This document shows, one piece after another, positions 2,849-32,634 of a stretch of 64,000 nt of DNA. The translations under genes were made by a program, and so were the position numbers. Each line of letters starts with the position of its first letter. Within the stretch, counting starts at the first letter, position 1. The stretch covers positions 44,009 through 108,008 of the forward strand of contig JAPLLV010000025.1 in the NCBI GenBank assembly GCA_026387405.1, in the 5' to 3' direction. Below the pieces are notes generated by a model. The model was not told the origin of the DNA, searched no databases, and worked only from the letters and a program-made list of their open reading frames with translations. This stretch comes from Candidatus Omnitrophota bacterium. GTDB taxonomy: Bacteria; Omnitrophota; Gorgyraeia; Gygaellales; Profunditerraquicolaceae.

Positions 2849-4231
2849 ATGATCAAAAGCATATGTTTAGTTTTTCCGCGCTTTAAATATCCATCAGGGG
2901 ATCCGCCCTTAGGGCTCTGTTCTTTAGCCGCTTATCTGAGGGACAGATTAAAGGTGGAGGTTTCCATCTTGGATGCGACATTCCATCCTTCGCTTGATTA
3001 CGTATCGCAATATCTGAAATCCAAGAAACCAGAGCTGGTAGGAATTTATTTTTCTACCCTGATGTATGAAAAAGCAAGGCTTATCGCGCAGATTGCCAAA
3101 AAAACAGGAGCTATCGTGGTCGGGGGAGGCCCCCACGCTACCATAAGCCCTGAATCTGTTATTGATGACGTTGATATAACAGTGCTGGGTGAAGGGGAGG
3201 AGACCCTGCGCGAACTAGCCATGATTCTTCCCTCGTTAGACCTATCCCAGATCAAGGGGATCTGGTATAAAGACGGACAAGGCAATGTCCGCAAAACTCC
3301 CCCCAGGGATGTCATGGTAAATCTGGATTATATAGGTTTTCCCGCTCTGGACCTTGTTGAGATGGAGAGATATTTTTTGTACTGGCATTATCTTGATATC
3401 ATGACATTTAGTGCGCGAGGAATAAATATAATGTCCTCAAGAGGCTGTCCCTTTAGCTGCACCTTTTGTCAGCCCACCCTAAAAAAGCTTTTCGGTGATA
3501 AAGTGAGATACAAAAGTCCCGATTATTTGGCCGAAGAAATAACGTACTATATGCATACTTTTAATGTCAATATGTTCTTTTTCCATGATGATACTTTTGC
3601 CGCGGATAAAACCTGGGCGAATAGTTTTTTCGATATGCTGGAAAAAAGAAGACTAAATATCGTTTGGGGATGCAATACCCGGGTTAACAATATGGACGAG
3701 TCCATGATGCGCCGGATGTACGAAGTTGGCTGCCGTGTTATTCACTTTGGCATAGAGTCCGGCTCCCAGCGGGTCTTAGATGAGATTTACGCAAAAAGAA
3801 TTACTTTGGACCACGTAAACAAAGTAATTGAAATAGCCAAGAGAGTGGGAATGTATTCCTCGGGATTTTTTATACTAGGCGCTCCCGGAGAGACCAAGAT
3901 GGAGATGAACAAGACCATAAAACTCGCCCTTTCTTCAGGGCTCAATGAAGCCGCTTTTTCAATTGCCACCCCCCTCCCCGGAACGATGCTGTACGATATG
4001 ATTAAAAATGACAGAAATTTTACCATCAGCAAGGATTATTCCGACTTCGATTATTATAGAGGATTGTCCTATGCTGACCATAATTCTAGAAACAGACAAT
4101 TGATCCTTGCCCAACGCAAGGCCTTGTTTTTATTTTATCTCCATCCCCTGAGATTGCAATATATCCTCAGGCATTTTTTTAGCTTTAGAGGAATGGTTAA
4201 GCTTTATATTAAAATAAGAAGGTTTTTTTAG
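2849..4231 (+). CDS. cobalamin-binding (class B) radical SAM enzyme
   Basis: N-terminal B12-binding-like region (VVGGGPHATISPE), then CxxxCxxC (SSRGCPFSCTFCQP). Start placed at ATG 2849, directly after the upstream stop; the longer ORF in the track overlaps the previous gene. Confidence 0.8.
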   Translation: MIKSICLVFPRFKYPSGDPPLGLCSLAAYLRDRLKVEVSILDATFHPSLDYVSQYLKSKKPELVGIYFSTLMYEKARLIAQIAKKTGAIVVGGGPHATISPESVIDDVDITVLGEGEETLRELAMILPSLDLSQIKGIWYKDGQGNVRKTPPRDVMVNLDYIGFPALDLVEMERYFLYWHYLDIMTFSARGINIMSSRGCPFSCTFCQPTLKKLFGDKVRYKSPDYLAEEITYYMHTFNVNMFFFHDDTFAADKTWANSFFDMLEKRRLNIVWGCNTRVNNMDESMMRRMYEVGCRVIHFGIESGSQRVLDEIYAKRITLDHVNKVIEIAKRVGMYSSGFFILGAPGETKMEMNKTIKLALSSGLNEAAFSIATPLPGTMLYDMIKNDRNFTISKDYSDFDYYRGLSYADHNSRNRQLILAQRKALFLFYLHPLRLQYILRHFFSFRGMVKLYIKIRRFF

Positions 4232-4258
4232 TTGTCAGCATAACGTCGTTACATTTAT

Positions 4259-5833
4259 ATGAACATAGAATATTCACGCAATGCCCCGACTCCGCTGAAA
4301 CAAAAAATAGCGTTAATCTTCGGGGGAATTCTACTTTTTTTGGTTCTAATAGAAGCGATATTGCGTTTGGGCGGGTATGTCGTGTTGCGCATGCGAGACC
4401 GCAGCAATGCCCTGGCGCTAAAAAATAAGGGCAACTATGTGATTTTATGCATCGGAGAATCTACTACTTTTTGCGGAGGGACTAAAGACGCATATCCTAC
4501 CCAATTAGAAGAGATATTAAATCAGCATAATTTAGGGATTCGTTTTAGCGTGGTGAACCTGGGTGTACCGACGGATACTTCCCATCTGGTGGGACAATTA
4601 GGAAGCAACATAGATAAGTATAATCCGCAAATGGTTATTGCGATGTTGGGGATTAACGATGGCGCGGGGTATTTGCGCAATATTGATAATAAGGGAATAT
4701 CTCCAATCAGCAGATTCATTAATTCTTTAAGGGTGTATAAGCTATTGAAGCTTATTCGGTTACATCAAGAGGCAAATAAACCGATAAAAGCCAATATCAG
4801 CAACGAAGCATTATTGGCGCAGTCATACATCAAGAATGGTTTGCGTTTTTCAGAAGCGACCAAGGTTTTAGAGACCGCCCTCTCGCTCGATAATAACAGA
4901 GACGATTTGCACTGCGCGTTGGGAGAAGTGTTTAGCCTGCAAGGTAAATCTACAGAGGCCAAAGAAGAATTCAGAAAGGCTATTAATCTGAACCATTATA
5001 ATGATAAGGCGTTCTGTAACTTGGCAGCTATTGCGGAGAAAGAAGTAAATCTGCAAGAAGCAGAAATCCAACTTAGGAGCGCGTTCGCCTTTAACCCCGG
5101 CAGTGCAAAAATTGCGTTTGAGCTAGGTTTGATTTGTATGAAGCAAAACAAATTTCAAGAAGGAGAAGGCTTTTTGCGTAAGGCCGCTAGTCTGAATACC
5201 AAAGATTACTCAAGCATATATTCGCGTTGCGGATGGGAATTATGCAATAGGGGGCAGATTGAGGCCGGCGAGAAGGTCTTCCAAGAGTGTATCGCGAATC
5301 AGCCCAAAAACACATCTTGTTATATAGATTTAGGGAAATTTTATCTCGAGAAGTCAAGATTCACCGATGCAGAGGCGTTATTTAAAAAAGCGCTCGAGCT
5401 CGATTCCCCTAATGAATTGATCTACGGGGCATTAGCCGCAATCTACATGAATATGAATCAAAAAGAACTTGCGGAAATATATTATAGAAGAGCAAACCTG
5501 ACCAGGTTGGAGTATTATAATCCTCTGACGGTAAGTAATTATTTAAAGCTCAGGCAGATTGTACAGGAGCGAGGAATACGGTTAGTATGTGTCCAGTATC
5601 CTGTGCGCAGCATTGAGCCGCTAAAGAAGATATTTGCCGACGACAAAGACATCATTTTCGTGGATAACGAAAAAATATTTAGAGAAGCTTTGTATCGCGA
5701 GGGCTATAGTTCTTATTTCAGCGATATGTTCGGTGGAGATTTCGGTCACTGCACGCGCAAAGGATACCGTCTCCTCGCCGGAAATATTGCCAATATACTG
5801 ATAAAAGAATTATTCAAGAAGAACAAAAGTTAG
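4259..5833 (+). CDS. membrane-anchored SGNH-hydrolase-like protein with inserted TPR repeats
   Basis: N-terminal TM anchor. SGNH block I variant (LCIGESTTFCGG), block III (GINDG), C-terminal block V (DFGHCTRKGY). About 250 aa of TPR-like repeats lie between them. Confidence 0.6.
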   Translation: MNIEYSRNAPTPLKQKIALIFGGILLFLVLIEAILRLGGYVVLRMRDRSNALALKNKGNYVILCIGESTTFCGGTKDAYPTQLEEILNQHNLGIRFSVVNLGVPTDTSHLVGQLGSNIDKYNPQMVIAMLGINDGAGYLRNIDNKGISPISRFINSLRVYKLLKLIRLHQEANKPIKANISNEALLAQSYIKNGLRFSEATKVLETALSLDNNRDDLHCALGEVFSLQGKSTEAKEEFRKAINLNHYNDKAFCNLAAIAEKEVNLQEAEIQLRSAFAFNPGSAKIAFELGLICMKQNKFQEGEGFLRKAASLNTKDYSSIYSRCGWELCNRGQIEAGEKVFQECIANQPKNTSCYIDLGKFYLEKSRFTDAEALFKKALELDSPNELIYGALAAIYMNMNQKELAEIYYRRANLTRLEYYNPLTVSNYLKLRQIVQERGIRLVCVQYPVRSIEPLKKIFADDKDIIFVDNEKIFREALYREGYSSYFSDMFGGDFGHCTRKGYRLLAGNIANILIKELFKKNKS

Positions 5834-5839
5834 ACTAAA

Positions 5840-7285
5840 ATGCGGATAGCCTTTATAAATTCTTGTTTAGGAGGAGACTTTAGTGCTATGGATATAGGTA
5901 TCACGTCCTTAGCCACGTACTTAAATGAAAGAACGGACCATAAAGCCGGTATCATAGATTTAACTTTTCATAGGAAGTCATGGAAAGAAGAACTAAGAAA
6001 AGAAATAGGAGAGAAAAAACCAGATATAATCGGGATTTCCTGTAACACGATGTATATGCAATATGTGAAAGCGATCATGGCGGAAGTGAAATCTAATTAC
6101 AGATTGCCTGTTATTCTGGGAGGACACCATGTTTCAATATACCCCGGAGAAACCATCGCCTTGCCTGAAGTTGACGCGGTATGCATAGGAGATGGAGAGG
6201 ATGCGCTTTGTGAATTTCTAGATCGTTTGTCTGCCGGGAAAAGTATCTCCGGTATCGCAGGCATCTGGGCAAAAGAGGATCGCAAAATCATAAAGAATGC
6301 GGTAGGTTGTTTTCGCCAGAATATCGATGATTTACCGATCCCGAATTGGGACCTCTGGAAAGACCTGGATAAATATTTTTATCATCTTGGGATGCTTTAT
6401 ATAATAGGAAGCAGGGGTTGTCCTTATAAATGCACCTTTTGCGATGCCCACGGAATTGCCGAGGTAGTCCGGGGTCGTTATTTTCGTAACCGGGACCCGG
6501 TAAAGTATGCGCAGGAGATCGGATACCAGTGGGAGAAATATAAGAATAGAGATTTGCGGCTCTTCCAGTTATTCGACCCGGTTTTCACGATGTCCCATGA
6601 TTGGGTGGCGGCATTTTGCGATGAATATAGAAGGCAAGGCTTACATAAGAAGATCAAATTCAGCGTATTTTCAAGGATAGACCATCTGGACGCGCAGAAA
6701 ATAAAAATATTGGCCCAATCAGGTTGCGGAATAGTCAGGGTTGGGGTCGAAGCCGGAGATGAATTTATCAGGCAGGAGATCTATCAAAAGAGAGTTTCTG
6801 ACGAGGATATCCGGAAGATATTCAGGTTATTGCACGATGCGAGGATTTGCATCACTGCTTATTACATATTAGGGGGGCCTTCCGAGTCACCCGGGACACT
6901 TCAGAAGACAATTGATTTGGCGCTGGAGCTTGACGCTGGACGGTCAGCCTTCTTTATATACAAACCTTTGACCAAAGAAGGTGTCAAACAGGTCTACGAT
7001 CTGGGCGGCTGGATTGACGGGTATAGATGGGGTAAGGCCGACAATATCACTTTTGACGCAGTTATTAATAATAAAGAGTTGACGCCGAAACAAGTCGAAT
7101 GGTATCAATTTAAGGCTTATTTTTTTACCTTTGTACGTAGGCTATTGCGGATTTTAAAAAGGCAGAAGCTGAGATATCTGATTTATCTCATTGTTTATCT
7201 GTATCGAGGGTTTAAATATGGCTTAAGTTTACCTTATATGGTTATTTATTACCACATCTACGGATATGATAATATAGATAAATAG
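5840..7285 (+). CDS. cobalamin-binding (class B) radical SAM enzyme
   Basis: B12-binding-like N-terminus (ILGGHHVSIYPGE); radical SAM cluster motif IGSRGCPYKCTFCDAHG. Confidence 0.8.
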   Translation: MRIAFINSCLGGDFSAMDIGITSLATYLNERTDHKAGIIDLTFHRKSWKEELRKEIGEKKPDIIGISCNTMYMQYVKAIMAEVKSNYRLPVILGGHHVSIYPGETIALPEVDAVCIGDGEDALCEFLDRLSAGKSISGIAGIWAKEDRKIIKNAVGCFRQNIDDLPIPNWDLWKDLDKYFYHLGMLYIIGSRGCPYKCTFCDAHGIAEVVRGRYFRNRDPVKYAQEIGYQWEKYKNRDLRLFQLFDPVFTMSHDWVAAFCDEYRRQGLHKKIKFSVFSRIDHLDAQKIKILAQSGCGIVRVGVEAGDEFIRQEIYQKRVSDEDIRKIFRLLHDARICITAYYILGGPSESPGTLQKTIDLALELDAGRSAFFIYKPLTKEGVKQVYDLGGWIDGYRWGKADNITFDAVINNKELTPKQVEWYQFKAYFFTFVRRLLRILKRQKLRYLIYLIVYLYRGFKYGLSLPYMVIYYHIYGYDNIDK

Positions 7286-7334: not shown

Positions 7335-9059
7335 ATGAGAAGAGTTTTGTTAGAGATTAATAAACGGAAGGCATGGTTTTTATTGCTATTCCTGTTTTTA
7401 TTTTACTTAACCAATAACTATGTTTGGTTAAACAGTAAAGGTAGTTTTGGCGATGGTCCAGATATGATATCTCATTTAAAAACTACTATTAGTATTTATC
7501 CAAAATTGTTATCATTAATAAACCCCGGTATAGGCGAATCGCGTTTAGATAATCTGATAAAAATACTTCAGTTTAGCCAATGGTGGCCACCCATGATATA
7601 TATAAATGCAGCTATTTTTTATTTGTTCTTTGGTTTATCAAATCTTGTCGTACAAATGTCCAATATTGTATTCTTTTTGATCTTGATTGTTTCCACCTAT
7701 CTGATAGGCAGAGAATTGAAAGATGATAATAACGGCATGTTGGCAGCTTTTCTAATTTCTTTTTACCCCGTAACATTCGGGCTAAGTAGGAATTTTGGTA
7801 TTGATTTTCCATTGACTGCTATGGTATCACTGGGGATATTTTTTCTTATTAAGACCGACGGTTTTACAAGCAGAAAATATTCTTTACTGTTTGGGATTGT
7901 TTCTGGGTTGGGAATTTTGACAAAATGGGCTTATCTTTTATTTATTCTTGGCCCCCTTTTTTACACGCTCTTTGCTTTCCCGCCTGAGATAGAGAATGTT
8001 AAAATTAAAAGAGGTAAAATATATAATTTACTCTTCGTATTTCTGTTGGTATTTTCAATTTCGTATATATGGGCATCTTCTCATTGGAGATTTATTTTTG
8101 AATTTGGGTGGCCCAGGCTTACCGCGAATTATTTACCAAAAGATGCTTTAAGCAAATATGATAATGAACATTTAATGACATCTTTAATTAATGAACCCAT
8201 AGGCATAAAAATTTTTTCTCGCGAATGGTTTTTATTTTATATTTTTCACATACTTAATAATATAAGTATATTTTTTTCTATTGTTTTTATAATAAGTTCG
8301 ATCGTTTTTGTTAGATTCGCTGGGGATCGGAAAAAGAAACTCATTTTAATTTGGATAATTTTCTCGTATTTGTTTTTCACTTTTTGTTCTCTTAAAGTTG
8401 GGCGTTACTATGTTCCTGTTCTGCCAGCAATAGCCGTAATTTCTGCCTTTGGCATACAAGAGATAAAAACCAATCTCTTAAGAAAAGGGTTAATTATAGT
8501 GATAGTCTTGGTAGGGATATTTCAGTTTTATCGCTTATCTTTTGATTTTATGAGTAGGTTTCCATTAAGGTTTATTTATATACATAACGTGGTCCACCCG
8601 TTATTTAAATCACCATCTTCAGATATCATTGGAACATATGCCTTCCCGCCTCGTGTTACTAATTTTGAAGATACCGCTGTTAGTTTAGGCAAGGAGATGA
8701 TAGCTGATTATCAAGGTGTAACGCCAATGAGCGTAATGATCAAAAGTGGCTACGGAGAGCGTGAAAATATTTATTATTTCCTTTGTCTCCATTATCCAAG
8801 CGCTAGGATTGTAATATGGAATAATGATTATAACCCAGACGAAGCCGGGAGCTTCGATTATCTTATTACTATACAAGCTATTGATTCCGGTAGGCCTGAG
8901 TATGGTTTATTCGATTTATGTAGTTCGAAAGGGAATTTTAGTAATGAGAAAAATATAAAGCCAAAAAATATCTTTGAGAAGGAGTACACAAGAATTTTGG
9001 CAAAACATCAGATTTTCCCAGGCGGCACGCATGTATACTTAGTCGGGCATAAATCATAG
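7335..9059 (+). CDS. GT-C-fold membrane glycosyltransferase (ArnT/PMT_2-like)
   Basis: Polytopic membrane protein. Clear paralogue of the 15599 ORF (…RKYSLLFGIVSGLGILTKW… vs …RRYSLLFGIVTGIGALIKG…). Confidence 0.65.
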   Translation: MRRVLLEINKRKAWFLLLFLFLFYLTNNYVWLNSKGSFGDGPDMISHLKTTISIYPKLLSLINPGIGESRLDNLIKILQFSQWWPPMIYINAAIFYLFFGLSNLVVQMSNIVFFLILIVSTYLIGRELKDDNNGMLAAFLISFYPVTFGLSRNFGIDFPLTAMVSLGIFFLIKTDGFTSRKYSLLFGIVSGLGILTKWAYLLFILGPLFYTLFAFPPEIENVKIKRGKIYNLLFVFLLVFSISYIWASSHWRFIFEFGWPRLTANYLPKDALSKYDNEHLMTSLINEPIGIKIFSREWFLFYIFHILNNISIFFSIVFIISSIVFVRFAGDRKKKLILIWIIFSYLFFTFCSLKVGRYYVPVLPAIAVISAFGIQEIKTNLLRKGLIIVIVLVGIFQFYRLSFDFMSRFPLRFIYIHNVVHPLFKSPSSDIIGTYAFPPRVTNFEDTAVSLGKEMIADYQGVTPMSVMIKSGYGERENIYYFLCLHYPSARIVIWNNDYNPDEAGSFDYLITIQAIDSGRPEYGLFDLCSSKGNFSNEKNIKPKNIFEKEYTRILAKHQIFPGGTHVYLVGHKS

Positions 9060-9205: not shown

Positions 9206-9958
9206 ATGACAAAGGAAAAGATCATTGTAGTAATGCCGGCGTATAATGCCGAATTGACTTTAGAAAAGACCGTAAAAGATATACCCCCCGGTAGCGTGGA
9301 TGAGATTATTTTGGTGGATGATGGTAGCGAGGATAATACTGCGGGAATTGCTCGGCGATTGGGGCTTTGTGTATTTACACATCCCAAAAATCTCGGCTAT
9401 GGCGCAAACCAGAAGACCTGTTATAAGCTGGCATTAGAAAGCGGGGCTGAATATGTAATAATGATCCATCCCGATTATCAATATGATGCGCGCCTTATTC
9501 CCTCCGCTATTAAGATATTAAAGATTGGGGTTTGCGATATCATTCTTGGTAACCGGATTAGGACGAGAGAAGAATGTTTATCTCACGGAATGCCCCACTA
9601 CAAGTATTTCGCAAATCGGACCCTTACAATTATTGCAAATGTCTGTCTTGGACAAAACTTAGGAGAATTCCATTCTGGTTTTCGCGCTTACCGTAGAACG
9701 GTATTAGAAACAATCCCTTTTGAGCGTAATTCAAACGGTTTTGTTTTTGACGCACAGTTTTTGGTACAAGCTGTTCATTTTAATTTTACCTTAGGAGATA
9801 TTCCTATGCCAGTGCGTTATTTTAAAGAAGCATCTTCGATTAATTTACATAGGGGCACTATTTATGGATTGCAATTTCTATGGGTATTGATAAGTTACTA
9901 TCTCTATCGGCTAAAGTTAATGAAATCTACTCTTTTTATCCCGAAGAGTAGTATTTAG
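9206..9958 (+). CDS. GT2 polyprenyl-phosphate sugar synthase (Dpm1/ArnC/GtrB-like)
   Basis: VVMPAYNAE…VDDGSEDNT, DxD-type GT2 core, C-terminal TM helix ([15 protein letters not shown]). Classic lipid-linked donor-synthase partner for GT-C enzymes. Confidence 0.8.
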
Positions 9959-10142
9959 ACTATACAAAAACATTATGGGAACATATTCATAAATGGTTCT
10001 AGAAAGCCATAAGTACCTTATATATTTTAAAAAAACATATTCGACATCTTGACAAATTAACAAGAATGTTTTGAAAACCGCGTTCAGCGAGCCCGATAAC
10101 CGCAGAATGTCTAACATATACACACTGAAAGGAGGTAATCCA

Positions 10143-10523
10143 ATGAAGAAAGAAAAATTCATCTCTAAAATAATTTTTATTTCAGCTTTGTTAATTCCGT
10201 TTGCCCAAACTTTGTTATCCGGATGCCTTAAAGATAAAGCAGAAAAAAACATAAAGGTCATTAAGGCTAACGCCGAAACGATAATACCGGTAATTAAAGA
10301 GAAGCCATTAGCAGTTAAGGAATGGGAGTTGGTGTGGGGGGACCTGTGGAATAATGAGGCGGCAGAGTTCAAGAGAGAAGGAATCAGCGATGCCAAAATT
10401 GTCGAACAGCTGAACCCCATCGCCGCCGAACGAGTTTCCAAAAGGCTTAACATGGGTAAAGACAAAGTAAGGCAAATTGTGGATGATTATTATACTGCTT
10501 TAAATCAACCAAAAGCTAAATGA
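10143..10523 (+). CDS. small lipoprotein, unknown function
   Basis: SD AAAGGAGGT 6 nt upstream of ATG 10143. Signal peptide with lipobox LLSGC. Confidence 0.5.
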   Translation: MKKEKFISKIIFISALLIPFAQTLLSGCLKDKAEKNIKVIKANAETIIPVIKEKPLAVKEWELVWGDLWNNEAAEFKREGISDAKIVEQLNPIAAERVSKRLNMGKDKVRQIVDDYYTALNQPKAK

Positions 10524-11929
10524 AATTTTCGCATTTTAAGATATTTTCGCGAAGGAATCTGTTGATTCTGATCGTGGGTTTTTTTGTTCTGAATAATCTC
10601 ATATGGTGGAACTATAATAAGTTCATCCAGGGGCCTGACGAAGGCAAGCATCTCTTTCTCAGCGTCCTTAATCTGAAGAGGTACCCGGAGCAGATTTTCT
10701 TTAACTTCGCACCTTTTGAGACACCCCTTTATTATCTCACCGCAGATATTTTCTACAAGATCCTGCACAGTACCTCCTACCATGTTTCTATGTTGAATAA
10801 TATCTTCTATATGATACTGCTTTTAGCGGGTGTAAGCAGGTTGGAGCGGATTTTTCTGGGTACCTCAGGGTTGTTATCCCCAATCTTCTTAATGTTTATT
10901 CCCCAATTGGCGGTCCATTCAAGGTTCTTTAACCCGGATATCGCTTTATGCGCGATAATTGCCTGGTTAGCGTATTCTTTAAAAAAATTGTATGATGAAC
11001 CCAGGCTGCTATATTTTTTCATGAGTTTGTTATTCATATCTTTAGGCTCATATACAAAAATTTCATTTTTAGCCTTTTGCGTTCCGCTCATATTGTATTA
11101 CCTATTCCTTTCCCTTAAGAATAAGCAACTCATTAAGGTGCGCTATATCTTTATCTTGGCAGCTATGCAATTTATTGTATTCTATGCGTTTTATCCAGGG
11201 ATAGTAAATCACCTGAGCTGGTACGGCAAAGCAAAGGTATTTGGCACCCAATATGGAGGGGGCGCATCGCCATTTGTCATCCCCTTTAAATATTATGAGA
11301 AAGGTCTTTCTGGAAAGATCCAGGAAGAGTTGTTCTTGATCCTTAACTCCCGCCTCGGTTTAGTAATGTTTGTTTTCTTTATCTTCTCTATCATAGCGCT
11401 AATGGTTTCTCGAATGAAAAGACAGGATAAGGGGTGCATAATTACTTTTTTTATCGGGAGCCTGCTGGTTTTTACTCTCGGCACTTACTTGTACCTTGAG
11501 GATCGCTATCTTATACCCCTGGCTGTCTTTGAGTCTATTGTTATCGCCTACGGAGTCAACTTCTTGTTTAGAAAAAGAATTGTTTATAAATCAATCGCCA
11601 TAGTTTTCCTGTGTCTTTGTCTGGCGCAATATTACGGAATATCTTATTCGAAACGGTTCATAGAGCATTTTTCAAAGTTTAGGATTTTTAACACAGTGGT
11701 AAATCTAACTTATTATCCGTATACTTCTCAGAATAGAATTATTTGGGGCTTGCCCTATCCCGATAATCCCGCCGAGAGGATAGTTTCTATAATGCAAGAT
11801 AATTTTAAAAAAGGCATAGATTATAAAGTTTATTTTCTGGATACGTACATTTCGGATGACTATACGAAGAGTTCTTTCGCCTTTTTCCTTTCCAACAGGG
11901 TTAATTACTCTCCTGCGTGCAGAAAATAG
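10520..11929 (+). CDS. GT-C-fold membrane glycosyltransferase (ArnT/PMT_2-like)
   Basis: Polytopic membrane protein with an acidic DE-containing first periplasmic loop (GPDEGKHL), as in ArnT/PMT. Confidence 0.6.
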   Translation: MKFSHFKIFSRRNLLILIVGFFVLNNLIWWNYNKFIQGPDEGKHLFLSVLNLKRYPEQIFFNFAPFETPLYYLTADIFYKILHSTSYHVSMLNNIFYMILLLAGVSRLERIFLGTSGLLSPIFLMFIPQLAVHSRFFNPDIALCAIIAWLAYSLKKLYDEPRLLYFFMSLLFISLGSYTKISFLAFCVPLILYYLFLSLKNKQLIKVRYIFILAAMQFIVFYAFYPGIVNHLSWYGKAKVFGTQYGGGASPFVIPFKYYEKGLSGKIQEELFLILNSRLGLVMFVFFIFSIIALMVSRMKRQDKGCIITFFIGSLLVFTLGTYLYLEDRYLIPLAVFESIVIAYGVNFLFRKRIVYKSIAIVFLCLCLAQYYGISYSKRFIEHFSKFRIFNTVVNLTYYPYTSQNRIIWGLPYPDNPAERIVSIMQDNFKKGIDYKVYFLDTYISDDYTKSSFAFFLSNRVNYSPACRK

Positions 11930-22142: not shown

Positions 22143-23639
22143 ATGGAAAGAATCTTACTGATAAATCCCGGGCAGGTGTATTATAAAAAAACATTTCGGA
22201 CATGTTGGCCGGGATCTATAGGCTTGCCATTGGGGATGCTTTATGCGGCTGCTGCCTTAGAAAGAGAAAGGTGCCGCGTCAAAGTGCTGGATTGTCTCGT
22301 TTCCGATCACACCATCCTGGAGAAACGCGGTGATCATTTTTTCTATGGTATCCCCGACAATAAACTGCGGACTTTGGTAAAAGAATATAAACCGGATATC
22401 GTGGCTATAGGCAGCCAATTCATGACACAGGAGGAAAATGTTTCCAGGACCGCTAAATTGGTCAAAGATATCGATACTTCTATTCAGGTAATCGTTGGCG
22501 GAGCAAATACAGGTTGCAGATACAAATATCTCCTTGAGCAGGGAGATATCGACATCGCCATAAAAGGAGAGAGCGAACAGGCTATTAGCAATCTTATTAA
22601 GTACTTTAGAGGAAATATAAAACTAGAGTCTATCTCTGGTATCGCGTATCGCAGAGAAAACCAAGTTTGCGAAACCGTTGGTCCCGAATATATCGATAAT
22701 TTGGATGGTTTGCCTCTTCCCGCCTATCATTTAGTCGATATGGAAGCTTACTTTAACCTATATAAAAAAGGAGTCTATGCGCGCGATCGTAATGTTAAAC
22801 GAGTTATACCAATGGTCACAAGCAGAGGGTGCCCGTATAGATGTATTTTTTGTTCCGTTTCGCATAGTATGGGAAAGCGTTGGCGGGCTCATTCAGCTGA
22901 ATATACCTCGCGTCACATCATAGCTGTTTCAAAACGATACAACGTAAGGCACATACATTTTGAAGACGACAATCTCTTAATGGACATAAAACGGTTCATG
23001 GCTATACTGGATACCCTAAATAAAGAAAGTATAACTTGGGATACCCCTAATGGTATCCGAGTTGATCCGCGCATAGATGAGGATATTCTAAAGAGGTTCA
23101 AGCAATGCGGATGCAAGTACCTCACGATAGGCATTGAATCCGGCGATCAGGAAGTCTTGGATAGGGTAATAAAAAAAGACATAACATTAGAAGACGTAAC
23201 GGCCTTTGCCAAGAAATGTAAAAGGATCGGCTTGCCCTTACGCGCATTTTTTATACTGGGGTTTCCCGGGGAAACGATAGAATCGATGTATAAGACCGTA
23301 GCATTTGCCTGCTTTATTCTCAAGAAGTATAATGTGGAGATAATAAATCACATCGCGACACCAATTTTTGGCACAGAACTGTACGATATCTGCCGCGATA
23401 ATGATTATTTTGCAAGCGAGGTTTCGCCGCGAACTCTCTCTGAATCGACGGTCCCGGACGGGCATTGCCTGATACGCACCGAAACGTTTACGGCAAAAGA
23501 CGTAGAATCTTTAAGTAATTCGCTTACAAGAAAAGTATACAGAAGACTATTCATCAGAGGGTTACGGTATCCGCTTAGTTCCCTGAGGAGAATAGGCAAC
23601 ACATACATGTTTATTAGGGCCCTGCGATGGTTGGTGTAA
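22143..23639 (+). CDS. cobalamin-binding (class B) radical SAM enzyme
   Basis: B12-binding-like N-terminus (IVGGANTG); VTSRGCPYRCIFCSVS. Confidence 0.8.
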   Translation: MERILLINPGQVYYKKTFRTCWPGSIGLPLGMLYAAAALERERCRVKVLDCLVSDHTILEKRGDHFFYGIPDNKLRTLVKEYKPDIVAIGSQFMTQEENVSRTAKLVKDIDTSIQVIVGGANTGCRYKYLLEQGDIDIAIKGESEQAISNLIKYFRGNIKLESISGIAYRRENQVCETVGPEYIDNLDGLPLPAYHLVDMEAYFNLYKKGVYARDRNVKRVIPMVTSRGCPYRCIFCSVSHSMGKRWRAHSAEYTSRHIIAVSKRYNVRHIHFEDDNLLMDIKRFMAILDTLNKESITWDTPNGIRVDPRIDEDILKRFKQCGCKYLTIGIESGDQEVLDRVIKKDITLEDVTAFAKKCKRIGLPLRAFFILGFPGETIESMYKTVAFACFILKKYNVEIINHIATPIFGTELYDICRDNDYFASEVSPRTLSESTVPDGHCLIRTETFTAKDVESLSNSLTRKVYRRLFIRGLRYPLSSLRRIGNTYMFIRALRWLV

Positions 23640-24544
23640 TTAGCAAAAATTGTTACGATACGAATCCAATATTTTCTATTGTTATTCCTACTTATAACCG
23701 CCGCGAACAATTAAAAGAATGCCTCGCATCATTATTCAGCCAGATTCCCGGGCGAGGTTTATTTGAGATTATCGTTATCGAAGATGGCAGCGATTGTGTT
23801 TTATGCGAAGATAAGGATTTTGGCTCCGACACGGGAAAGATACGGTATATAACTACGAGGCATCAAGGTCCGGCCGCGGCCCGGAATCTCGGCATAAAAG
23901 AAGCGCGCGGGGAGATCGTTATCTTCCTTGACGATGATGTAATAGCGGCTAGCGGGTGGGCTAAATCGGTAATAGAGAGTTGGAAAAGTTATCCAGGCAT
24001 AGATGGCATTGGCGGATATATCGTAAGTGACCCCAAAGACACTATATGCGCAAGAGTGAGTTGTGTTTTTTTTAACTGGTTCCTGGATAAGGCCGTGACG
24101 AAAGCCGATTACGCCTGTTTTATGAGCACGTGCAATGCAGGATATACTAAAAAAGCTCTCATAAGAGTCAATGGGTTTGATGAGCAGTTTAGGGGAGCGT
24201 ACGGTGAGGACCGGGATTTGAACGCGAGGATCCTACAGAGCGGCGGGAAAATGCGCTTGACTAAAGATATGATAGTTTATCACGATAGATACTTGAGTTT
24301 TTCCCGCTTCCTGACGCGAAATTTTAATTACGGGAAAGCCTCTTTTCACATATATAACAAGCACCCTAAATTCGCGCGTTCACAATTTTGCAGTTATCTG
24401 TATTTATCCAACTCGATGTTCTATGCGTTCGAAAAACATAGGGAAAAGATCCTGGCGTGTCTATTGTTAGCCGTCTCGCAAATAGCCACTCTTTGCGGAT
24501 ATTTTGTCGCTTCTTTTACCTGGCGTAGAGGAAATTCCCGATGA
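23627..24544 (+). CDS. GT2 glycosyltransferase
   Basis: FSIVIPTYNRREQL…VIEDGSD…DDDV. Confidence 0.75.
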   Translation: MVGVISKNCYDTNPIFSIVIPTYNRREQLKECLASLFSQIPGRGLFEIIVIEDGSDCVLCEDKDFGSDTGKIRYITTRHQGPAAARNLGIKEARGEIVIFLDDDVIAASGWAKSVIESWKSYPGIDGIGGYIVSDPKDTICARVSCVFFNWFLDKAVTKADYACFMSTCNAGYTKKALIRVNGFDEQFRGAYGEDRDLNARILQSGGKMRLTKDMIVYHDRYLSFSRFLTRNFNYGKASFHIYNKHPKFARSQFCSYLYLSNSMFYAFEKHREKILACLLLAVSQIATLCGYFVASFTWRRGNSR

Positions 24545-25641: not shown

Positions 25642-25665
25642 GCTATTCGTAACGATTCAGGATTG

Positions 25666-26856: not shown

Positions 26857-28305
26857 ATGAAGGTATTATTGATTACGACTCCGTATAAGAGTAAGGCGTA
26901 CAGGGTATTGAACAAAAGAATTCCTGCGACGCTTCCTTTTTTAGGCATCGCATATGTGGCGGCGGTCCTCGAGCGGGAAGGTATCCCCGTTCGGTTGTTA
27001 GACGCATGGGGTAGAAATCTAGGTTTTGAAGATATCCGCAAAGAGATTGCCGCCTTTCGTCCGGATATAATCGGCATCACCTGTACGGCAAGTGCATTTG
27101 GGGTCAGCGTAGAGTTGGCAAGGAAAATCAAGGATTGTGCAAAGGATATCACTATAGTCTTGGGAGGGCCGTATGTTTCGGCCATTCCCGAAGAAACTCT
27201 GCGTGAAATACCCTGGGTCGATGTGGTAGTGATAGGCGAGGGCGAACATACCATGCTGGAGTTGGCGCAAGCCAATCCTTTACATGCAATCAAAGGGATT
27301 GCCTATCGTTCAGGAGGCCGCATCTTGGTTAATGAGCCCCGGCCCCTCATATACAACCTCGATGCGTTGCCTTTTCCTGCCAGGAATTTTTATCGCATGG
27401 CTGATTACCGCCGCCCTTTTTACGAATTCCACGGAACACCGTTTGCATCCATCGTCACAAGCAGGGGATGCCCTTTTAAATGCCGATTCTGCGCGTCGCA
27501 TACCGTGGCCGGCAGGGAAATACGCCTGAGGAGTATCCCAAATATTATTAAAGAGATTGATATGCTCCTTGAGCGATATAAAGTCAGGTTTATCAGCATA
27601 GCTGATGACGCGCCGGTATTTACCATGGACGAAGCGCGCCTGAGTGAATTTTGCCGGGCGATCAAGGGGAAAGGATTTCTTTGGGGAGCCAAGGCGAGGG
27701 CTGATTCAATCAATGAAAATAACCTTAGGATGCTTAGGGATGCGGGATGCAGAATACTTGAGATCGGCTGTGAGTCGGGCAATCCGGGCATATTGGAGGG
27801 ATGGGAAAAGGGAGTTTCCGTTACTCAGATCAAAAATGCCTTCAGGCTCATGAACAAATTCGGGATAAATTCCGTGGCGATGTTTATGCTGGGTGCTCCT
27901 GCCGAAACAAAAGAGACGGTGCTTGGTACGATACGGTTTGCCAAAGAACTCGGAGCAACGTATTGCATTGCCAGAATACTCTATCCTTATCCTGGCACGG
28001 AAGCCTATGCTGATCTCAAAGCGCAAAAGATGCTGCATTCGAAAAGCTGGGATGAGATCAGGTATCCGCAAAGCGGAGATTCTATCCTTGTGCATCCGAA
28101 TTCAACCACCAGCGAGCTATGCCTGCCAAATCTGACCTTTAACCAGTTGCTTAGACTGCAAAGGCGCATGCACAGGGATTTTTATTTGAATAAACGGTAT
28201 ATATTCTCTACGTTATCAAGATTAAAAGATTGGCATGCCGTTAAGGTATATGGCAGGCTCTTGATTGGTGTGGTGCGTTTTTGGTTCAGGTGGGGTTTAC
28301 AGTAA
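26857..28305 (+). CDS. cobalamin-binding (class B) radical SAM enzyme
   Basis: VLGGPYVSAIPEE; VTSRGCPFKCRFCASH. Start chosen at ATG 26857 (MKVLLITTPY); TTG 26830 and ATG 26833 are alternatives. Confidence 0.8.
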   Translation: MKVLLITTPYKSKAYRVLNKRIPATLPFLGIAYVAAVLEREGIPVRLLDAWGRNLGFEDIRKEIAAFRPDIIGITCTASAFGVSVELARKIKDCAKDITIVLGGPYVSAIPEETLREIPWVDVVVIGEGEHTMLELAQANPLHAIKGIAYRSGGRILVNEPRPLIYNLDALPFPARNFYRMADYRRPFYEFHGTPFASIVTSRGCPFKCRFCASHTVAGREIRLRSIPNIIKEIDMLLERYKVRFISIADDAPVFTMDEARLSEFCRAIKGKGFLWGAKARADSINENNLRMLRDAGCRILEIGCESGNPGILEGWEKGVSVTQIKNAFRLMNKFGINSVAMFMLGAPAETKETVLGTIRFAKELGATYCIARILYPYPGTEAYADLKAQKMLHSKSWDEIRYPQSGDSILVHPNSTTSELCLPNLTFNQLLRLQRRMHRDFYLNKRYIFSTLSRLKDWHAVKVYGRLLIGVVRFWFRWGLQ

Positions 28306-29373: not shown

Positions 29374-29385
29374 ATTCGGTGTTTT

Positions 29386-30339
29386 TTATGCGTAAAGAGA
29401 TTTTTTGGTTTTGTGCGCATTTCGCCAAAAGCGTAAATATGTTATAAGGATAGCAAGGGTGCGCTTTACCTTCTCAATATCGAAATAAGCGTAAGTTCTA
29501 TAACCTGAGAAATATGTCTTTTGAAGGAATTGTTTGAAAGCAGGATAACTTGCATGAATGAGTTCCGCACCTATATCCCAAGGTTTGGGAGAGTCCAGGA
29601 AATGGCATAATATATCGTGGTGGAAGCGTAAATCTAGTACGGGTTCCCGGGTAAAGAAAGGCACATTGAATTTTTCCGGCAGAAAAGCGACACGGTTATA
29701 GAGTATTATATTGAGAATAGCTTGATCAGCGCTGGGGAATTGAGAGGGGTGTTTGTCCATAAGCGCAACGCATTTTTCCGTGTAGTTATTTTCTCTCCAT
29801 CTGCGCGCGTCAATAAGCATGACGCCGGCGTTGAAATATCGCGCATTATCCGGCATGCCGCATTTAAGCAGGGCGTCGCGCTCTAAGTGCCAGACGTTCT
29901 TAATGATAGTGTTTGAGACAACCGCTGCGACATTATTGTTTAGCGGGAAAGAAAATAATGCGCGTAAATCAGTTAATACAAGTAAATCCGCGTCAAGATA
30001 GATAAATCGCTCTACCTTAAGGGAGTCCGGGATATGAATCCGCACCAGGGTCATTTTATTGCCATAAATCCCCCTTGATTTACCCAAATTTATAGCTGTT
30101 GTATCATAGAGATGCAATGCGTATTTTCCCGTGAATTCATGTAGTGTCATGTGCAGCCGTTTGACCCTCTCCAGATCATAATCCTTAAGAAATAAATGGA
30201 GATTAACAAAACTACCAGACAAGGCAAGTGAGGCCAGTGCGGAATATAATGTTACGTGCAGGCCGATTTCCATATTTCTGTCAGCGGCTAGGGCAATTTC
30301 TAATCGTTTCTGGTTCTGTGAACCTTTATAATTATCCAT
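29386..30339 (-). CDS. GT8 glycosyltransferase (LPS-type retaining glycosyltransferase family)
   Basis: DxD YLDADLLV and the NAGVMLIDARRW motif typical of GT8. Confidence 0.75.
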   Translation of the reverse strand: MDNYKGSQNQKRLEIALAADRNMEIGLHVTLYSALASLALSGSFVNLHLFLKDYDLERVKRLHMTLHEFTGKYALHLYDTTAINLGKSRGIYGNKMTLVRIHIPDSLKVERFIYLDADLLVLTDLRALFSFPLNNNVAAVVSNTIIKNVWHLERDALLKCGMPDNARYFNAGVMLIDARRWRENNYTEKCVALMDKHPSQFPSADQAILNIILYNRVAFLPEKFNVPFFTREPVLDLRFHHDILCHFLDSPKPWDIGAELIHASYPAFKQFLQKTYFSGYRTYAYFDIEKVKRTLAILITYLRFWRNAHKTKKSLYA

Positions 30340-31504
30340 GGCCGTTGGTATTATTAATAAGGTTCGGACGCAGATATGAGCAGGATAGTTGCTTTATCAG
30401 CAGAATAATCATCAAGAGTATGAGAACGGATACATATTTTAATGGTATCGGAGGGCCTAGGTTAGAAAGATAGGGATAATAACTAAGAAATGAAGAGAGG
30501 GCTAATATTATAGGAATAAAGAAAAATCGTGGATGATAAAAAACAAAGACAATGCTAAGAATATCCGCCAGAAAAAAATACCGCTCATGCATCATTGGCG
30601 AGATGAAGGGGATAAGTAAGGAGCTGAACATCGCGATATCGATATAGGCTTGCGCTTTCCGTCCTTCTTCATATTTAATATAGGAGAATGCGAGTGTCAT
30701 AAGAAGCATTATCAATAAAACAGAGAGCCCGCCGGATAATAAGATCCCCGGATTATTAGGGATCCATTGGTAGATATTAGGGGCATTAAAGGTTAAGCTG
30801 TAATGCCTCTGGATCGATACTATTTTCCAATCGTAAAATAATAAATCAGTAAACGGCTTCCCGGCCAACCAGCATGGAATGATCGAAAGGATGTAGATGA
30901 GGGGAGTATAGATAAGCAACTTCCATATCCTGCCCTTATTTTGTAAGGCCCAGGTAGCGTAGAGAGGAAGCAGGATCAGCGGTGCCACGGGTTTACAGGT
31001 TAAAGAAGCCGCAAATAATATAACTATCTTCCAGTCGTTAGTTGAGTTGTCGAGCAATAGATAATAAAGAGAGGCCATGATGAGGGCGATGTGTACTGTA
31101 TCCCACTGCCCCCAATAACTACTGTTGATGATTACGGAAGGGTAGAAAAGGAAACACCAGCATGCCAAAACAGCGGGGAATGTATTATCTTTATAGCGAA
31201 GTTTAACAATCTTGTATACGAATAAACATATTACCGCTTCAAAAAAAAGCGAAATAAACTTAATTGCATACAATGCTTTTATAGGTATAAGGGTAACTAA
31301 TAATAAAAAGTACAGGAATATATGTGATACATGGAAAAAGTAACTCAGGCCGCTTATCCCATGCGTACGCAAATACTCATAATAGGCAAGGTGCATATTT
31401 GTATCGTAGCTGACGAAATAAAATAAGGGCACCCGGATGCTTATGGCCAGACAAATTCCTAAGAGGAGGAGAAATCGCGCTTGTTTTATCCGCCAAAGTT
31501 TCAC
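30332..31504 (-). CDS. polytopic integral membrane protein, possibly a GT-C/DUF2029-like glycosyltransferase
   Basis: Ten or more TM helices and no soluble domains. Only the context suggests a membrane glycosyltransferase or flippase-like role. Confidence 0.45.
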   Translation of the reverse strand: MKLWRIKQARFLLLLGICLAISIRVPLFYFVSYDTNMHLAYYEYLRTHGISGLSYFFHVSHIFLYFLLLVTLIPIKALYAIKFISLFFEAVICLFVYKIVKLRYKDNTFPAVLACWCFLFYPSVIINSSYWGQWDTVHIALIMASLYYLLLDNSTNDWKIVILFAASLTCKPVAPLILLPLYATWALQNKGRIWKLLIYTPLIYILSIIPCWLAGKPFTDLLFYDWKIVSIQRHYSLTFNAPNIYQWIPNNPGILLSGGLSVLLIMLLMTLAFSYIKYEEGRKAQAYIDIAMFSSLLIPFISPMMHERYFFLADILSIVFVFYHPRFFFIPIILALSSFLSYYPYLSNLGPPIPLKYVSVLILLMIILLIKQLSCSYLRPNLINNTNGHG

Positions 31505-32634
31505 GCAGGACTCCCTGCTAATCTGTGTTCATGGTGTTGCCAAGCCATTTTGTTTAGGATTAAAAAATGCAGTAATTTCTCAGCGTACCCATATTTGCGC
31601 ATACATCCGGCTAGGCATGGTTTTGTGCACTCCAGTATCTGGATACGCTGCCGCTGGGCAGTTTTTGAGAACCAGAGTGTTTGTAGAGAATCACCGCGGA
31701 CATTTCCTATAGGGGGGAACCAAGGGCATAATTGCACCTCTCCGGTGTGTGAAATATAAAGATTGCGAAAGCCAACGGTGCAGGCATGCCGGGTTCGTAA
31801 TAGATCGGTATTTCTGAAGAACGCCTTTATTAAGGCTAAATTATTTTTGGGGGTAATTATAGGAAATCCCTTACGTTTCATCTCAATCAGCGTTTCTACT
31901 TCTTTGTCTAAAGCGTCAAGGTGATCAAGGCGGGCCAATGGCAGCGCCAGGGTTTTTTCGGATAATGGTGTCGAGAACGCGGGTAGTTTGGGATGTATGC
32001 CTAGAATAGGTTGGAAATCCACGCTGTCAACGCCCAGTTCTGTTGCCCAGCGGGCAAAATGGCTTAACTCTTTATAGGTATCGCGCGTAACAAGGCAGAG
32101 TACTCCTATGCGCGGACGCGGATTTTTCGTTCGGATATAACGTATGGCCGATACAATACGTTGATGTAGCTGCGTATCCCCCTTGTAATGATTATGTAGT
32201 TCAGGTCTAACACTGTTTAGAGAGAATACTATAGAATCTACGCCGGTACGAAGTAGGGTATCATACATATCAGGAGTAAATACAATACCGTTTGTGCTTA
32301 CGTTCGTGCAAACTCTAACTTTATTTGCATAAGTTAATAAATCCAGGAAACCATTTTTTACAAAAGGTTCTCCTCCGGTAAAAGACATATAACAAGATCC
32401 GAGCCACCTGTAGAGTTGCGTGACAATATCTTTGCACTCATCGAGCGATAGTTCGTGAGGGTCGGGTTCATTTTGCCACCTCAGGCAGGTAACGCAGCGG
32501 GCATTGCATTGGTAGGTCACCGAGAAGTATATTACCTGCGGGGTATTTAAGCACCGGCGGACCCGCGTGCCTATATTCAATAGCGCATCATTTCTGACAA
32601 CGCTCAAGGCGTATCTGAAGAATTTCTGTTTCAT
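31501..32634 (-). CDS. radical SAM/SPASM-domain enzyme (paralogue family A)
   Basis: VTYQCNARCVTCLRW, FTGGEPFV, C-terminal LCPWFPPIGNV…CTKPCLAGC. Confidence 0.75.
   Translation of the reverse strand: MKQKFFRYALSVVRNDALLNIGTRVRRCLNTPQVIYFSVTYQCNARCVTCLRWQNEPDPHELSLDECKDIVTQLYRWLGSCYMSFTGGEPFVKNGFLDLLTYANKVRVCTNVSTNGIVFTPDMYDTLLRTGVDSIVFSLNSVRPELHNHYKGDTQLHQRIVSAIRYIRTKNPRPRIGVLCLVTRDTYKELSHFARWATELGVDSVDFQPILGIHPKLPAFSTPLSEKTLALPLARLDHLDALDKEVETLIEMKRKGFPIITPKNNLALIKAFFRNTDLLRTRHACTVGFRNLYISHTGEVQLCPWFPPIGNVRGDSLQTLWFSKTAQRQRIQILECTKPCLAGCMRKYGYAEKLLHFLILNKMAWQHHEHRLAGSPA

Follow-up and report, generated by a model that had tools for sequence, protein, structure and literature searches.

One locus in an Omnitrophota genome raises the question of what nine radical S-adenosylmethionine (rSAM) enzymes do among glycosyltransferases (GTs), and whether their substrates are sugars, lipids or peptides. 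The locus lies in a stretch of 64,000 nucleotides (hereafter the window; contig JAPLLV010000025.1, positions 44,009 to 108,008, of assembly GCA_026387405.1), whose host is an Omnitrophota metagenome-assembled genome (MAG). Sugar tailoring by rSAM enzymes is known in antibiotic pathways and in hopanoid lipids and, to our knowledge, not as an integral component of glycan assembly at the cell surface. Sequence comparison resolves the nine genes into two separate predicted systems, designated Module 1 and Module 2, plus one gene (SP_25666) outside both cores; the single radical-tailoring system proposed in an earlier sequence-only reading of this DNA is thereby split into two independent ones. As a whole, the locus is read, with a probability of roughly 55%, as a cell-envelope glycoconjugate island in which two rSAM tailoring modules would operate within a glycosylation system of polyprenyl-phosphate (Pol-P) carriers and GT-C enzymes.

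Nine Radical SAM Genes of Two Architectures

Listing of open reading frames (ORFs) and Pfam scans place nine rSAM genes between positions 2849 and 32634, four with a B12-binding domain and five of SPASM/twitch-like type.

B12_2849, 2849..4231, plus strand: B12-binding rSAM protein, Module 1; PF02310 68 bits, PF04055 70 bits; CX3CX2C at residue 200
B12_5840, 5840..7285, plus strand: B12-binding rSAM protein, Module 1, conserved partner of B12_2849; PF02310 71 bits, PF04055 58 bits
SP_20983, 20983..22110, plus strand: rSAM protein with twitch/SPASM-like C-terminus, Module 2; PF04055 and PF13186
B12_22143, 22143..23639, plus strand: B12-binding rSAM protein, Module 2; PF02310 and PF04055
RS_24541, 24541..25641, plus strand: rSAM protein, Module 2; PF04055 only (88 bits); BlsE/HxsC-like core, CX5CX2CX5C tail
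SP_25666, 25666..26709, minus strand: SPASM/twitch-like rSAM protein outside the conserved core of both modules; PF04055 and PF13186
B12_26857, 26857..28305, plus strand: B12-binding rSAM protein, Module 2; PF02310 86 bits, PF04055 70 bits
SP_28297, 28297..29373, minus strand: twitch-like rSAM protein, Module 2; PF04055 and PF13186
SP_31501, 31501..32634, minus strand: twitch-like rSAM protein, Module 2; PF04055 and PF13186

All nine proteins carry the CX3CX2C motif and match PF04055 at 40.7-87.9 bits (gathering cut-off 29.5), and the four B12-type proteins (2849, 5840, 22143 and 26857) match PF02310 at 50.3-85.5 bits (cut-off 32.1). The number, the positions and the four B12-binding members given in the sequence-only reading are thus confirmed, as is the interleaving with GT genes: seven GT-C, six GT2, one GT4, one GT8 and one Wzy_C gene are interspersed among them, as assigned by Pfam or through homologues. 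PF13186, for which a check had been suggested, was found in four of the five SPASM/twitch genes and not in the one at 24541. Nine rSAM genes in about 29 consecutive genes correspond to a binomial P of 1e-7 to 2e-6 at a background of 3-4%; this background fraction was assumed (1-4%), with P at or below 2e-6 throughout. The start codon of B12_26857 is backed by gene calls made independently on a Logan contig of identical sequence and that of B12_2849 by full-length homologues, and identical copies of window proteins occur on several Logan metagenome contigs. The arrangement of rSAM genes among GT genes was also found again in other genomes.

The four B12-domain proteins have the architecture of class B rSAM enzymes and are candidates for cobalamin use. 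The AlphaFold model of B12_2849 (predicted local distance difference test score, pLDDT, 93.6) superposes on TsrM, QCMT, AprD4 and OxsB with TM-scores of 0.68-0.73, AprD4, QCMT and TsrM being the best at about 0.7. In a PDB sequence search, B12_26857 and B12_22143 (the two searched) were closest to AprD4, and to QCMT, and the best match of B12_26857 was AprD4 at 93 bits. Among NCBIfam models, HpnJ (TIGR03471, cut-off 577.6 bits) is the best match of both B12_26857 (232.5 bits, the other B12 proteins scoring 91-167) and B12_2849 (167 bits), whereas B12_5840 is best matched by TIGR04072, a "lipid biosynthesis B12/rSAM" model, and B12_22143 by the Sden_1168 P-methyltransferase model (189 of 575 bits). 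The AprD4 model gives 92-102 bits (cut-off 500).

With regard to the other five, the SPASM/twitch genes of the sequence-only reading do exist as twitch-like genes, but the full seven-cysteine SPASM motif (CX9-15GX4C ... CX2CX5CX3C ... C, two auxiliary clusters) was not found in them. Only 4-5 C-terminal cysteines are conserved among orthologues, which points to one auxiliary cluster, as in twitch domains, rather than a full SPASM. The conserved C-terminal cysteines are C264, C282, C283, C326 and C329 in SP_20983, and C279, C297, C330 and C334 are invariant in the SP_28297 family, while the C-terminal CX5CX2CX5C cluster of RS_24541 is kept in 7/7 orthologues. The "tight minus-strand paralogue family" of three shrinks to SP_28297 and SP_31501, which are 40% identical; SP_25666 shares about 25% with either.

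The closest PDB sequence to RS_24541 is BlsE, a sugar-nucleoside decarboxylase (64 bits), and the same search with SP_28297 returned weak, generic matches only. The SP_28297 model (pLDDT 85.6) has its best TM-scores with BlsE, SkfB and SuiB. NCBIfam scores with other named models reach 73.8 of 400 bits (BlsE), 125.6 of 500 (HxsC4) and 93 of 380 (tungsten-cofactor maturase), and over all rSAM, GT and GT-C proteins no equivalog-level assignment was obtained save for the flavoenzyme at 18682. At the level of structural models, the fold searches confirm two rSAM architectures and do not discriminate between substrates.

Module 1 in Bacteria and Archaea

Orthologues of Module 1, the pair B12_2849 and B12_5840, were found at 42-64% identity in Elusimicrobiota, Woesearchaeota, Sigynarchaeota and one further metagenome contig, i.e., in four further lineages and two domains of life. 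In the window, the two genes are wedged among GT-C genes at spacings of 1 to 49 nt, with the following neighbours.

910..2847, plus strand: GT-C of PMT_2 type (PF13231 34 bits), nine predicted transmembrane segments; immediately 5' of the first B12-rSAM gene
4259..5833, plus strand: GDSL/TPR protein between the two Module 1 rSAM genes; one N-terminal transmembrane segment, membrane-anchored
7335..9059, plus strand: GT-C, PMT_2/PMT (PF13231 56 bits, and PF02366)
GT2_9206, 9206..9958, plus strand: small GT2 (PF00535) resembling polyprenyl-phosphate sugar synthases

The context of Module 1 was sampled in four settings (loci L181, L182, L183 and L184/L185). In L181, the order is a PMT GT-C gene, a 217-aa GT2, a flavoprotein and the orthologues of B12_2849 (50%) and B12_5840 (62%), followed downstream by UDP-glucose dehydrogenase-type and UDP-GlcNAc 2-epimerase-type genes and further GTs. 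In L182, from Elusimicrobiota, a flavoprotein, a B12_2849 orthologue (46%), a 239-aa GT2 and a B12_5840 orthologue (64%) form an island of four genes between housekeeping genes, without a GT-C. In both L181 and L182, the pair (46-64% identity) thus has a small GT2 no more than one gene away. GT2 genes directly adjoin two B12-rSAM genes in the woesearchaeal L183, amid polytopic membrane proteins, GT9, GT4 and PMT, and the sigynarchaeal L184/L185 combine a GT87, a B12_2849 orthologue, a GT2 and six more B12-rSAM genes. Four of the five loci L181-L185 contain GT-C genes of PMT or GT87 type.

The small GT2s of L181-L184 and GT2_9206 have AglJ, PpgS, PgfS, ArnC and Dol-P-hexose transferase as their top NCBIfam matches, at 45-101 bits against cut-offs of 325-529; for GT2_9206 itself these are PpgS, AglJ, Dol-P-hexose transferase and ArnC, all under cut-off. 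The Module 1 relatives have a flavoprotein of the PRK07233 family (second-best match HpnE), a different family from that of the window flavoenzyme FAD_18682.

The B12_2849 family comprises 2467 proteins at E<=1e-20, the best 120 of which share 39-63% identity, and its members named so far are from several archaeal phyla as well as from Omnitrophota, Elusimicrobiota and Bacteroidota. For B12_5840, about 20 full-length representative clusters score above 300 bits, within a wider superfamily of 1979 representatives at E<=1e-30. In the GDSL/TPR protein, the Lipase_GDSL_2 (SGNH/GDSL hydrolase) match is partial (residues 64-141, profile positions 1-78 of 178) and is accompanied by TPR families (Pfam). 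An Omnitrophota homologue of B12_2849 (P0118, 733 aa) is fused to TPR repeats, which matches the separate TPR/GDSL gene between the two window B12 genes.

Several side observations were made on these relatives. The two sigynarchaeal loci (GCA_030587505 and GCA_030587525) hold seven B12-rSAM genes in about 14 kb, an Asgard-archaeal counterpart of the theme. Small ORFs with 3-4 transmembrane segments adjoin rSAM genes in L181 and L183, and three proteins of more than 2000 aa (P0328, P0363 and P0416) contain three or four B12-rSAM-like stretches each.

Module 2 within Omnitrophota

Module 2 is comprised of SP_20983, B12_22143, RS_24541, B12_26857, SP_28297 and SP_31501, together with two GT2s and a flavoenzyme.

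GT2_14614, 14614..15612, plus strand: GT2 (Pfam), Module 2 partner; three C-terminal transmembrane segments
FAD_18682, 18682..20091, plus strand: UDP-galactopyranose-mutase-like flavoenzyme (PRK07208 family, NF005548)
GT2_23627, 23627..24544, plus strand: GT2 (Pfam), Module 2; overlaps both flanking rSAM genes; one C-terminal transmembrane helix

Seven further Omnitrophota loci (L013, L015 with L018/L019, L017, L020, L178, L179 and L180) carry it at 40-68% identity, which makes eight with the window. The usual gene order is SPASM, B12, GT2, rSAM, GT2, and the RS_24541 orthologue directly adjoins a GT2 gene in 6/6 relatives having a full-length orthologue; the GT2 abutting it in relatives is of the GT2_14614 type (40-46% identity). 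Orthologues are 42-62% identical for SP_20983, 51-66% for RS_24541, 38-48% for GT2_23627, 49-60% for B12_22143 (in five relatives) and 46-62% for SP_31501. B12_26857 (67-68%) is both the most conserved member and the most HpnJ-like. The orthologues of SP_28297 and SP_31501 lie side by side in five relatives, with a class-I SAM methyltransferase before them; the two window genes are separated by an inserted GT8 and GT87-like gene. Further genes of the Module 2 relatives encode a peptidase-U32 protein, a carbamoyltransferase and one more methyltransferase, and three of these relatives adjoin rpsT, LptE, BamD and MurJ genes.

FAD_18682 is a member of NF005548 (PRK07208.1-4) at 557 bits against a cut-off of 389, and has orthologues of 32-34% identity in L013, L178, L179 and L180. 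Its best PDB matches are UDP-galactopyranose mutases (UGMs), with 4dsg at 70.6 bits (phmmer) over residues 4-451, nearly the full length. TIGR00031, the UGM model, gives 38.7 bits, below its cut-off of 303.75, and the protein is distant kin of eukaryote-type UGMs.

The sequence-only reading had named a lack of rSAM-GT co-conservation in related genomes as the finding that would speak against it. The rSAM genes are indeed kept with GT2 genes, but the partners of Module 2 are not GT-C enzymes: the GT-C genes, B12_2849, B12_5840, SP_25666, GT8 and GT4 are not part of its core. No orthologue of SP_25666 was found in the related loci examined (best identity 23-29%). Outside Omnitrophota, only homologues of 20-34% identity to Module 2 proteins were found. 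The close family of SP_28297 comprises only about 14 clusters; with its alignment, a genome scan placed close relatives in the genomes of only two GTDB species (homologues at the 77 remaining loci being 22-34% identical), and a metagenome scan gave one among the matches listed, on a 2.2-kb contig.

The peptidase-U32-family protein was seen beside rSAM genes in L013 (11284-12459) and L179 (11180-14768), the latter also with the carbamoyltransferase; the U32 family includes O2-independent hydroxylases. L018 and L019 (GCA_964579435) are one locus with identical match statistics on two contigs of a MAG labelled "Planctomycetales", probably by co-assembly redundancy and with a doubtful taxonomic label. 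Non-orthologous operons mixing B12-rSAM, SPASM-rSAM, GT2/GT4/GT-C/Wzy and a PRK07208-like flavoprotein were observed in MAGs of Deltaproteobacteria, Elusimicrobia, Nealsonbacteria and Chlorobiota (L029, L051, L063 and L082), which were annotated with crude hidden Markov models built from window proteins only.

Are the Substrates Peptides?

The SPASM/twitch enzymes could in principle be maturases of proteins or of ribosomally synthesized and post-translationally modified peptides (RiPPs), acting on a peptide or protein (e.g., a glycoprotein acceptor or a metalloenzyme) that is then glycosylated by the GTs. In line with this, the top Foldseek matches of SP_28297 include SkfB, PqqE, SuiB, CteB-type enzymes and anSME, the best NCBIfam match of GT2_23627 is MftF, the mycofactocin glycosyltransferase (137 of 280 bits), and there are weak matches to HxsC and tungsten-cofactor maturase models. 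On the other hand, every RiPP-maturase model stays far under its cut-off, and the conserved auxiliary cysteines number 4-5 only. The earlier statement that no precursor-peptide ORF stands beside the SPASM genes is borne out: the gaps adjoining them (147 and 169 nt) contain no plausible ORF, and small-ORF conservation across eight related loci revealed only rpsT (ribosomal protein S20) and no Cys/Gly-rich ORF next to these genes. No PqqD/RiPP recognition element (RRE) domain was matched (PF05402), and the N-termini are too short for one because CX3CX2C begins at residues 18-43. With neither a conserved small ORF nor an RRE domain, a peptide or protein substrate is very improbable. RiPP maturation was rejected as the main explanation, neither a precursor nor an RRE having been found.

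Glycosyltransferases and Other Genes of the Locus

The remaining genes of the locus are as follows.

10520..12692, plus strand: GT-C, PMT_2; two ORFs in the window (10520..11929 and 11856..12692) by a frame change
12671..13789, plus strand: GT4 (Pfam)
13782..14642, plus strand: GT2 (Pfam)
15599..17105, plus strand: GT-C, PMT_2; split in two ORFs by a 98-bp deletion at 16477/16478
17107..18669, plus strand: GT-C, PMT_2 (Pfam)
GT2_20103, 20103..20978, plus strand: GT2 (PF00535 105 bits); one C-terminal hydrophobic helix
29386..30339, minus strand: GT8 (PF01501 133 bits)
30332..31504, minus strand: GT87/Gpi18-like GT-C, 390 aa, eight transmembrane segments; assigned through homologues
32804..33931, minus strand: Wzy_C-family membrane protein (Pfam 54.7 bits)
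33951..34913, plus strand: GT2 (Pfam)
35014..36786, plus strand: GT-C, PMT_2 (Pfam); closes the locus

The seven GT-C proteins are six PMT_2 members above the gathering cut-off and the GT87/Gpi18-like protein at 30332..31504. The latter gave no match in its own Pfam scan or PDB sequence search; its homologues carry PF09594/PF13231, GT87/DUF2029 and the JGI name "Gpi18-like mannosyltransferase". The GT-C at 10520..12692 is a single 752-aa gene call on the otherwise identical Logan contig L001, and the 98 bp missing at 16477/16478 are present in L001 (99.99% identical, positions 4238-4335, blastn), a difference that could reflect strain variation or an assembly error. The Wzy and GT2 genes of the 32804..34913 region have orthologues in L015 and L151. 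Neither an ABC exporter nor classical nucleoside diphosphate (NDP)-sugar modification genes were found in the locus by Pfam.

Several features were observed in and around the locus. ORFs at 463-891 (142 aa, with an N-terminal transmembrane helix) and at 10140-10523 (127 aa, lipoprotein-like with an LSGC lipobox) each lie just 5' of a GT-C gene and have no significant family match. Two D-Ala-D-Ala-ligase-like ATP-grasp genes and a KamA-like (lysine-2,3-aminomutase-like) rSAM gene, the tenth rSAM gene (39054..40232), occupy 37051-40232, 3' of the glycan locus and just beyond the nine-gene region. This trio also flanks the related locus L015 (69-76% identity) and could yield a product containing beta-lysine. 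The GC content of the glycan locus is low (window 1-38000 vs 38000-64000), at 0.35-0.47 against about 0.50 at 38-46 kb and variable values further on. Promoter and terminator scans gave site numbers not above those of shuffled sequence, and a tRNA scan found none.

A Proposed Function

Since rSAM genes travel with GT genes in other genomes, the enzymes most likely modify membrane-anchored sugars. Briefly, membrane-associated GT2s would load sugars onto polyprenyl phosphate at the cytoplasmic face, the candidates being the PpgS/AglJ/ArnC-like GT2_9206, proposed as the maker of the lipid-linked donor for Module 1, and the C-terminally anchored GT2_14614, GT2_20103 and GT2_23627, while FAD_18682 may provide a furanose nucleotide sugar. 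Acting in the cytoplasm, the nine soluble rSAM enzymes would modify lipid-linked or nucleotide-linked sugars at unactivated carbons, most plausibly by C-methylation or an HpnJ/AprD4-type rearrangement or dehydration for the B12-domain enzymes, and by BtrN/BlsE/DesII-type oxidation, decarboxylation or epimerisation for the twitch-like ones. The tailored donors would then be flipped over the membrane and passed by the seven GT-C enzymes and the Wzy_C protein to an extracytoplasmic acceptor. Each of these steps is predicted from gene context and homology.

The nearest solved structures are consistent with this proposal, as they include the sugar-acting rSAM enzymes AprD4 (for the B12 enzymes) and BlsE (for RS_24541 and SP_28297), and so are the UDP-sugar dehydrogenase-type and 2-epimerase-type genes of L181 and the UGM-like FAD_18682. 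There is also a precedent for auxiliary enzymes acting on a lipid-linked sugar in three-component systems (PMC11127046). The view of the sequence-only reading that the rSAM enzymes tailor the sugars of the glycan gains from the co-conservation with GTs and the lack of precursor peptides. It has to be amended in one respect: because none of the nine proteins has a predicted transmembrane segment, the substrates are likely cytoplasmic lipid- or nucleotide-linked monosaccharide precursors and not the finished glycan.

A number of points weigh against a glycoconjugate island of this kind. No flippase candidate, whether a small multi-transmembrane ORF or a GtrA/ArnEF/MATE-type Pfam match, was found in window positions 1-37 kb, and the locus contains no initiating phosphoglycosyltransferase or Wzx (no Bac_transf, Glycos_transf_4 or Polysacc_synt in ORFs of at least 150 aa). 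The GT-C genes lack orthologous conservation with Module 2, their complement varies by genome, and in three relatives there are few GT-C genes, or none, within 10 kb of Module 2. No GT enrichment was seen close to the genes of distant SPASM homologues in other phyla (11 GT ORFs within 5 kb vs 14 at 5-10 kb), so that the wider rSAM-GT theme is carried by the individual loci L029, L051, L063 and L082 only. All nine rSAM proteins stay below every curated NCBIfam cut-off, and their fold matches are generic, with the RiPP maturases SkfB, SuiB and PqqE among them. AprD4 carries a B12-like domain yet does not use cobalamin and, by analogy, such an N-terminal domain may be no guarantee of cobalamin use in the window proteins either. 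Finally, the PRK07233/HpnE/phytoene-desaturase-like flavoprotein of the Module 1 relatives hints at isoprenoid-chain chemistry.

A rival idea is that some or all of the rSAM enzymes modify the lipid part, methylating, cyclising or cross-linking the isoprenoid carrier or a specialised glycolipid, with an unusual envelope glycolipid as the product. HpnP/HpnR, the rSAM enzymes that tailor glycerol dialkyl glycerol tetraethers, and HpnI/HpnJ offer parallels. It would suit the HpnJ matches of B12_26857 (232 bits) and B12_2849 (167 bits), the TIGR04072 match of B12_5840, the PRK07233 flavoprotein beside Module 1 orthologues with HpnE in second place, and the L182 island, where flavoprotein, B12, GT2 and B12 genes stand without a GT-C. 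Module 2 relatives adjoin LptE/BamD/MurJ, and only two of their GT2 genes are conserved; moreover, some Omnitrophota have a squalene-hopene cyclase (PMC12324291). However, the HpnJ, HpnH, HpnE and Tes scores are far under the curated cut-offs, neither the window nor the related loci contain a squalene/hopene synthase or ether-lipid gene, and FAD_18682 is akin to UGMs and not to desaturases. Sugars are suggested by the neighbouring carbamoyltransferase, UDP-sugar dehydrogenase and epimerase genes, and GT-C genes stand beside the module in four of the five Module 1 loci. Modification of the lipid is less likely than tailoring of the sugar, at about one chance in five. Membership in the hopanoid pathway itself was rejected, all scores being far under cut-offs.

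Somewhat less likely still is that the rSAM enzymes act on soluble NDP-sugars in place of the short-chain dehydrogenase/reductase and aminotransferase toolkit, the products being used by ordinary Leloir GTs and the link to Pol-P and GT-C enzymes being incidental. The locus does lack classical NDP-sugar modification genes, DesII and BlsE, whose substrates are nucleotide- or nucleoside-linked sugars, are among the fold matches, and the UGM-like enzyme would by homology use a UDP-sugar. Yet the tightest conserved neighbours are membrane-anchored or Pol-P-synthase-like GT2s, and the 1 to 49 nt spacing of the Module 1 genes between GT-C genes speaks against an incidental link.

Within the glycoconjugate island, a further-reaching and tentative proposal is that Module 1 with its Pol-P-synthase-like GT2, often joined by a flavoprotein and a GT-C, represents a widespread pathway of anaerobic Bacteria and Archaea, among them Omnitrophota, Elusimicrobiota, DPANN and Asgard lineages, whose products, polyprenyl-phosphate sugars with C-alkylation or ring rearrangement, would be lipid-linked glycosyl donors of a new class for extracytoplasmic glycosylation. 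The Omnitrophota-specific Module 2, with its six rSAM enzymes, might then be a second such pathway, for a heavily radical-modified sugar.

Significance

The enzyme superfamilies and the glycosylation logic are already known; their combination is not known. A literature search for links between rSAM enzymes and GT-C, O-antigen, exopolysaccharide or polysaccharide loci found nothing relevant, and neither did one on PRK07208. A 2026 review of B12-dependent rSAM enzymes makes no mention of polysaccharides, glycans or sugars. The part of greatest interest, and the one that lends itself best to testing, is the cross-domain Module 1. If the proposal is true, carbon-centred radical chemistry, giving C-methyl or rearranged sugars, would join the envelope-glycan repertoire of strictly anaerobic, mostly uncultured lineages, and a family of more than 2000 unannotated B12-rSAM proteins would acquire a function. 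The elusimicrobial island (L182, 6702-11675) would then be a compact four-gene test case for enzymology.

Comparison with Known Systems

Lipid-linked donor systems of three components include GtrA/GtrB/GtrC, ArnC/ArnD/ArnEF/ArnT, mycobacterial DprE1/E2 with Emb/Aft, and PpgS/Rv3779. In their general scheme, a polyprenyl-phosphate sugar made by a GT2 may be remodelled by auxiliary enzymes before it is flipped and transferred by a GT-C; among pentofuranose systems, one with a polyprenyl-phosphoribose synthase, a MATE flippase and a GT136 has auxiliary epimerases (PMC11127046). The window resembles them in that a small GT2, putatively of Pol-P-sugar-synthase type, adjoins a GT-C, and the enzymes in between could remodel the lipid-linked sugar. 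The GT-C component is represented by six PMT_2 proteins and the GT87-like protein, seven instead of one, whereas no flippase gene was identified, and the place of deformylases or FAD/NAD epimerases as auxiliary enzymes is taken by rSAM proteins of B12-domain and twitch-like type. Radical SAM is not mentioned in the papers found on three-component systems. As for Wzx/Wzy-dependent O-antigen or capsule assembly, the locus has only the Wzy_C-family protein (54.7 bits), with no initiating phosphoglycosyltransferase or Wzx.

Compared with the SPASM/twitch RiPP maturases (PqqE, SkfB, SuiB and the sactisynthases), the window proteins are alike in fold and in the first half of the SPASM motif (CX9-15GX4C), but have no precursor peptide, no RRE and fewer auxiliary cysteines.

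The sugar-tailoring rSAM enzymes of antibiotic pathways comprise the C-methylases GenK, GenD1 and Fms7, the diol dehydratase AprD4, the dehydrogenase BtrN, the decarboxylase BlsE, and DesII. Both of their architectures, a Rossmann/B12-like domain with a barrel and a barrel with a twitch cluster, occur in the window, and AprD4 and BlsE are best or near-best matches. In contrast to them, identity is 13-23% with all family models under cut-off, and the context is envelope glycan assembly with GT-C and Wzy_C proteins in a non-actinomycete.

The hopanoid side-chain pathway (HpnH/HpnI/HpnJ/HpnK with HpnP/HpnR) likewise joins GT2s, a B12-domain rSAM enzyme acting on a lipid-linked sugar, further rSAM enzymes and a flavoprotein of amine-oxidase fold, and HpnJ is the best NCBIfam match for two of the four window B12 enzymes. 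The window differs from it in its scores (167-232 vs 577.6), in having no cyclase or squalene genes and in a flavoenzyme that is UGM-like. Calditol synthase provides a further parallel.

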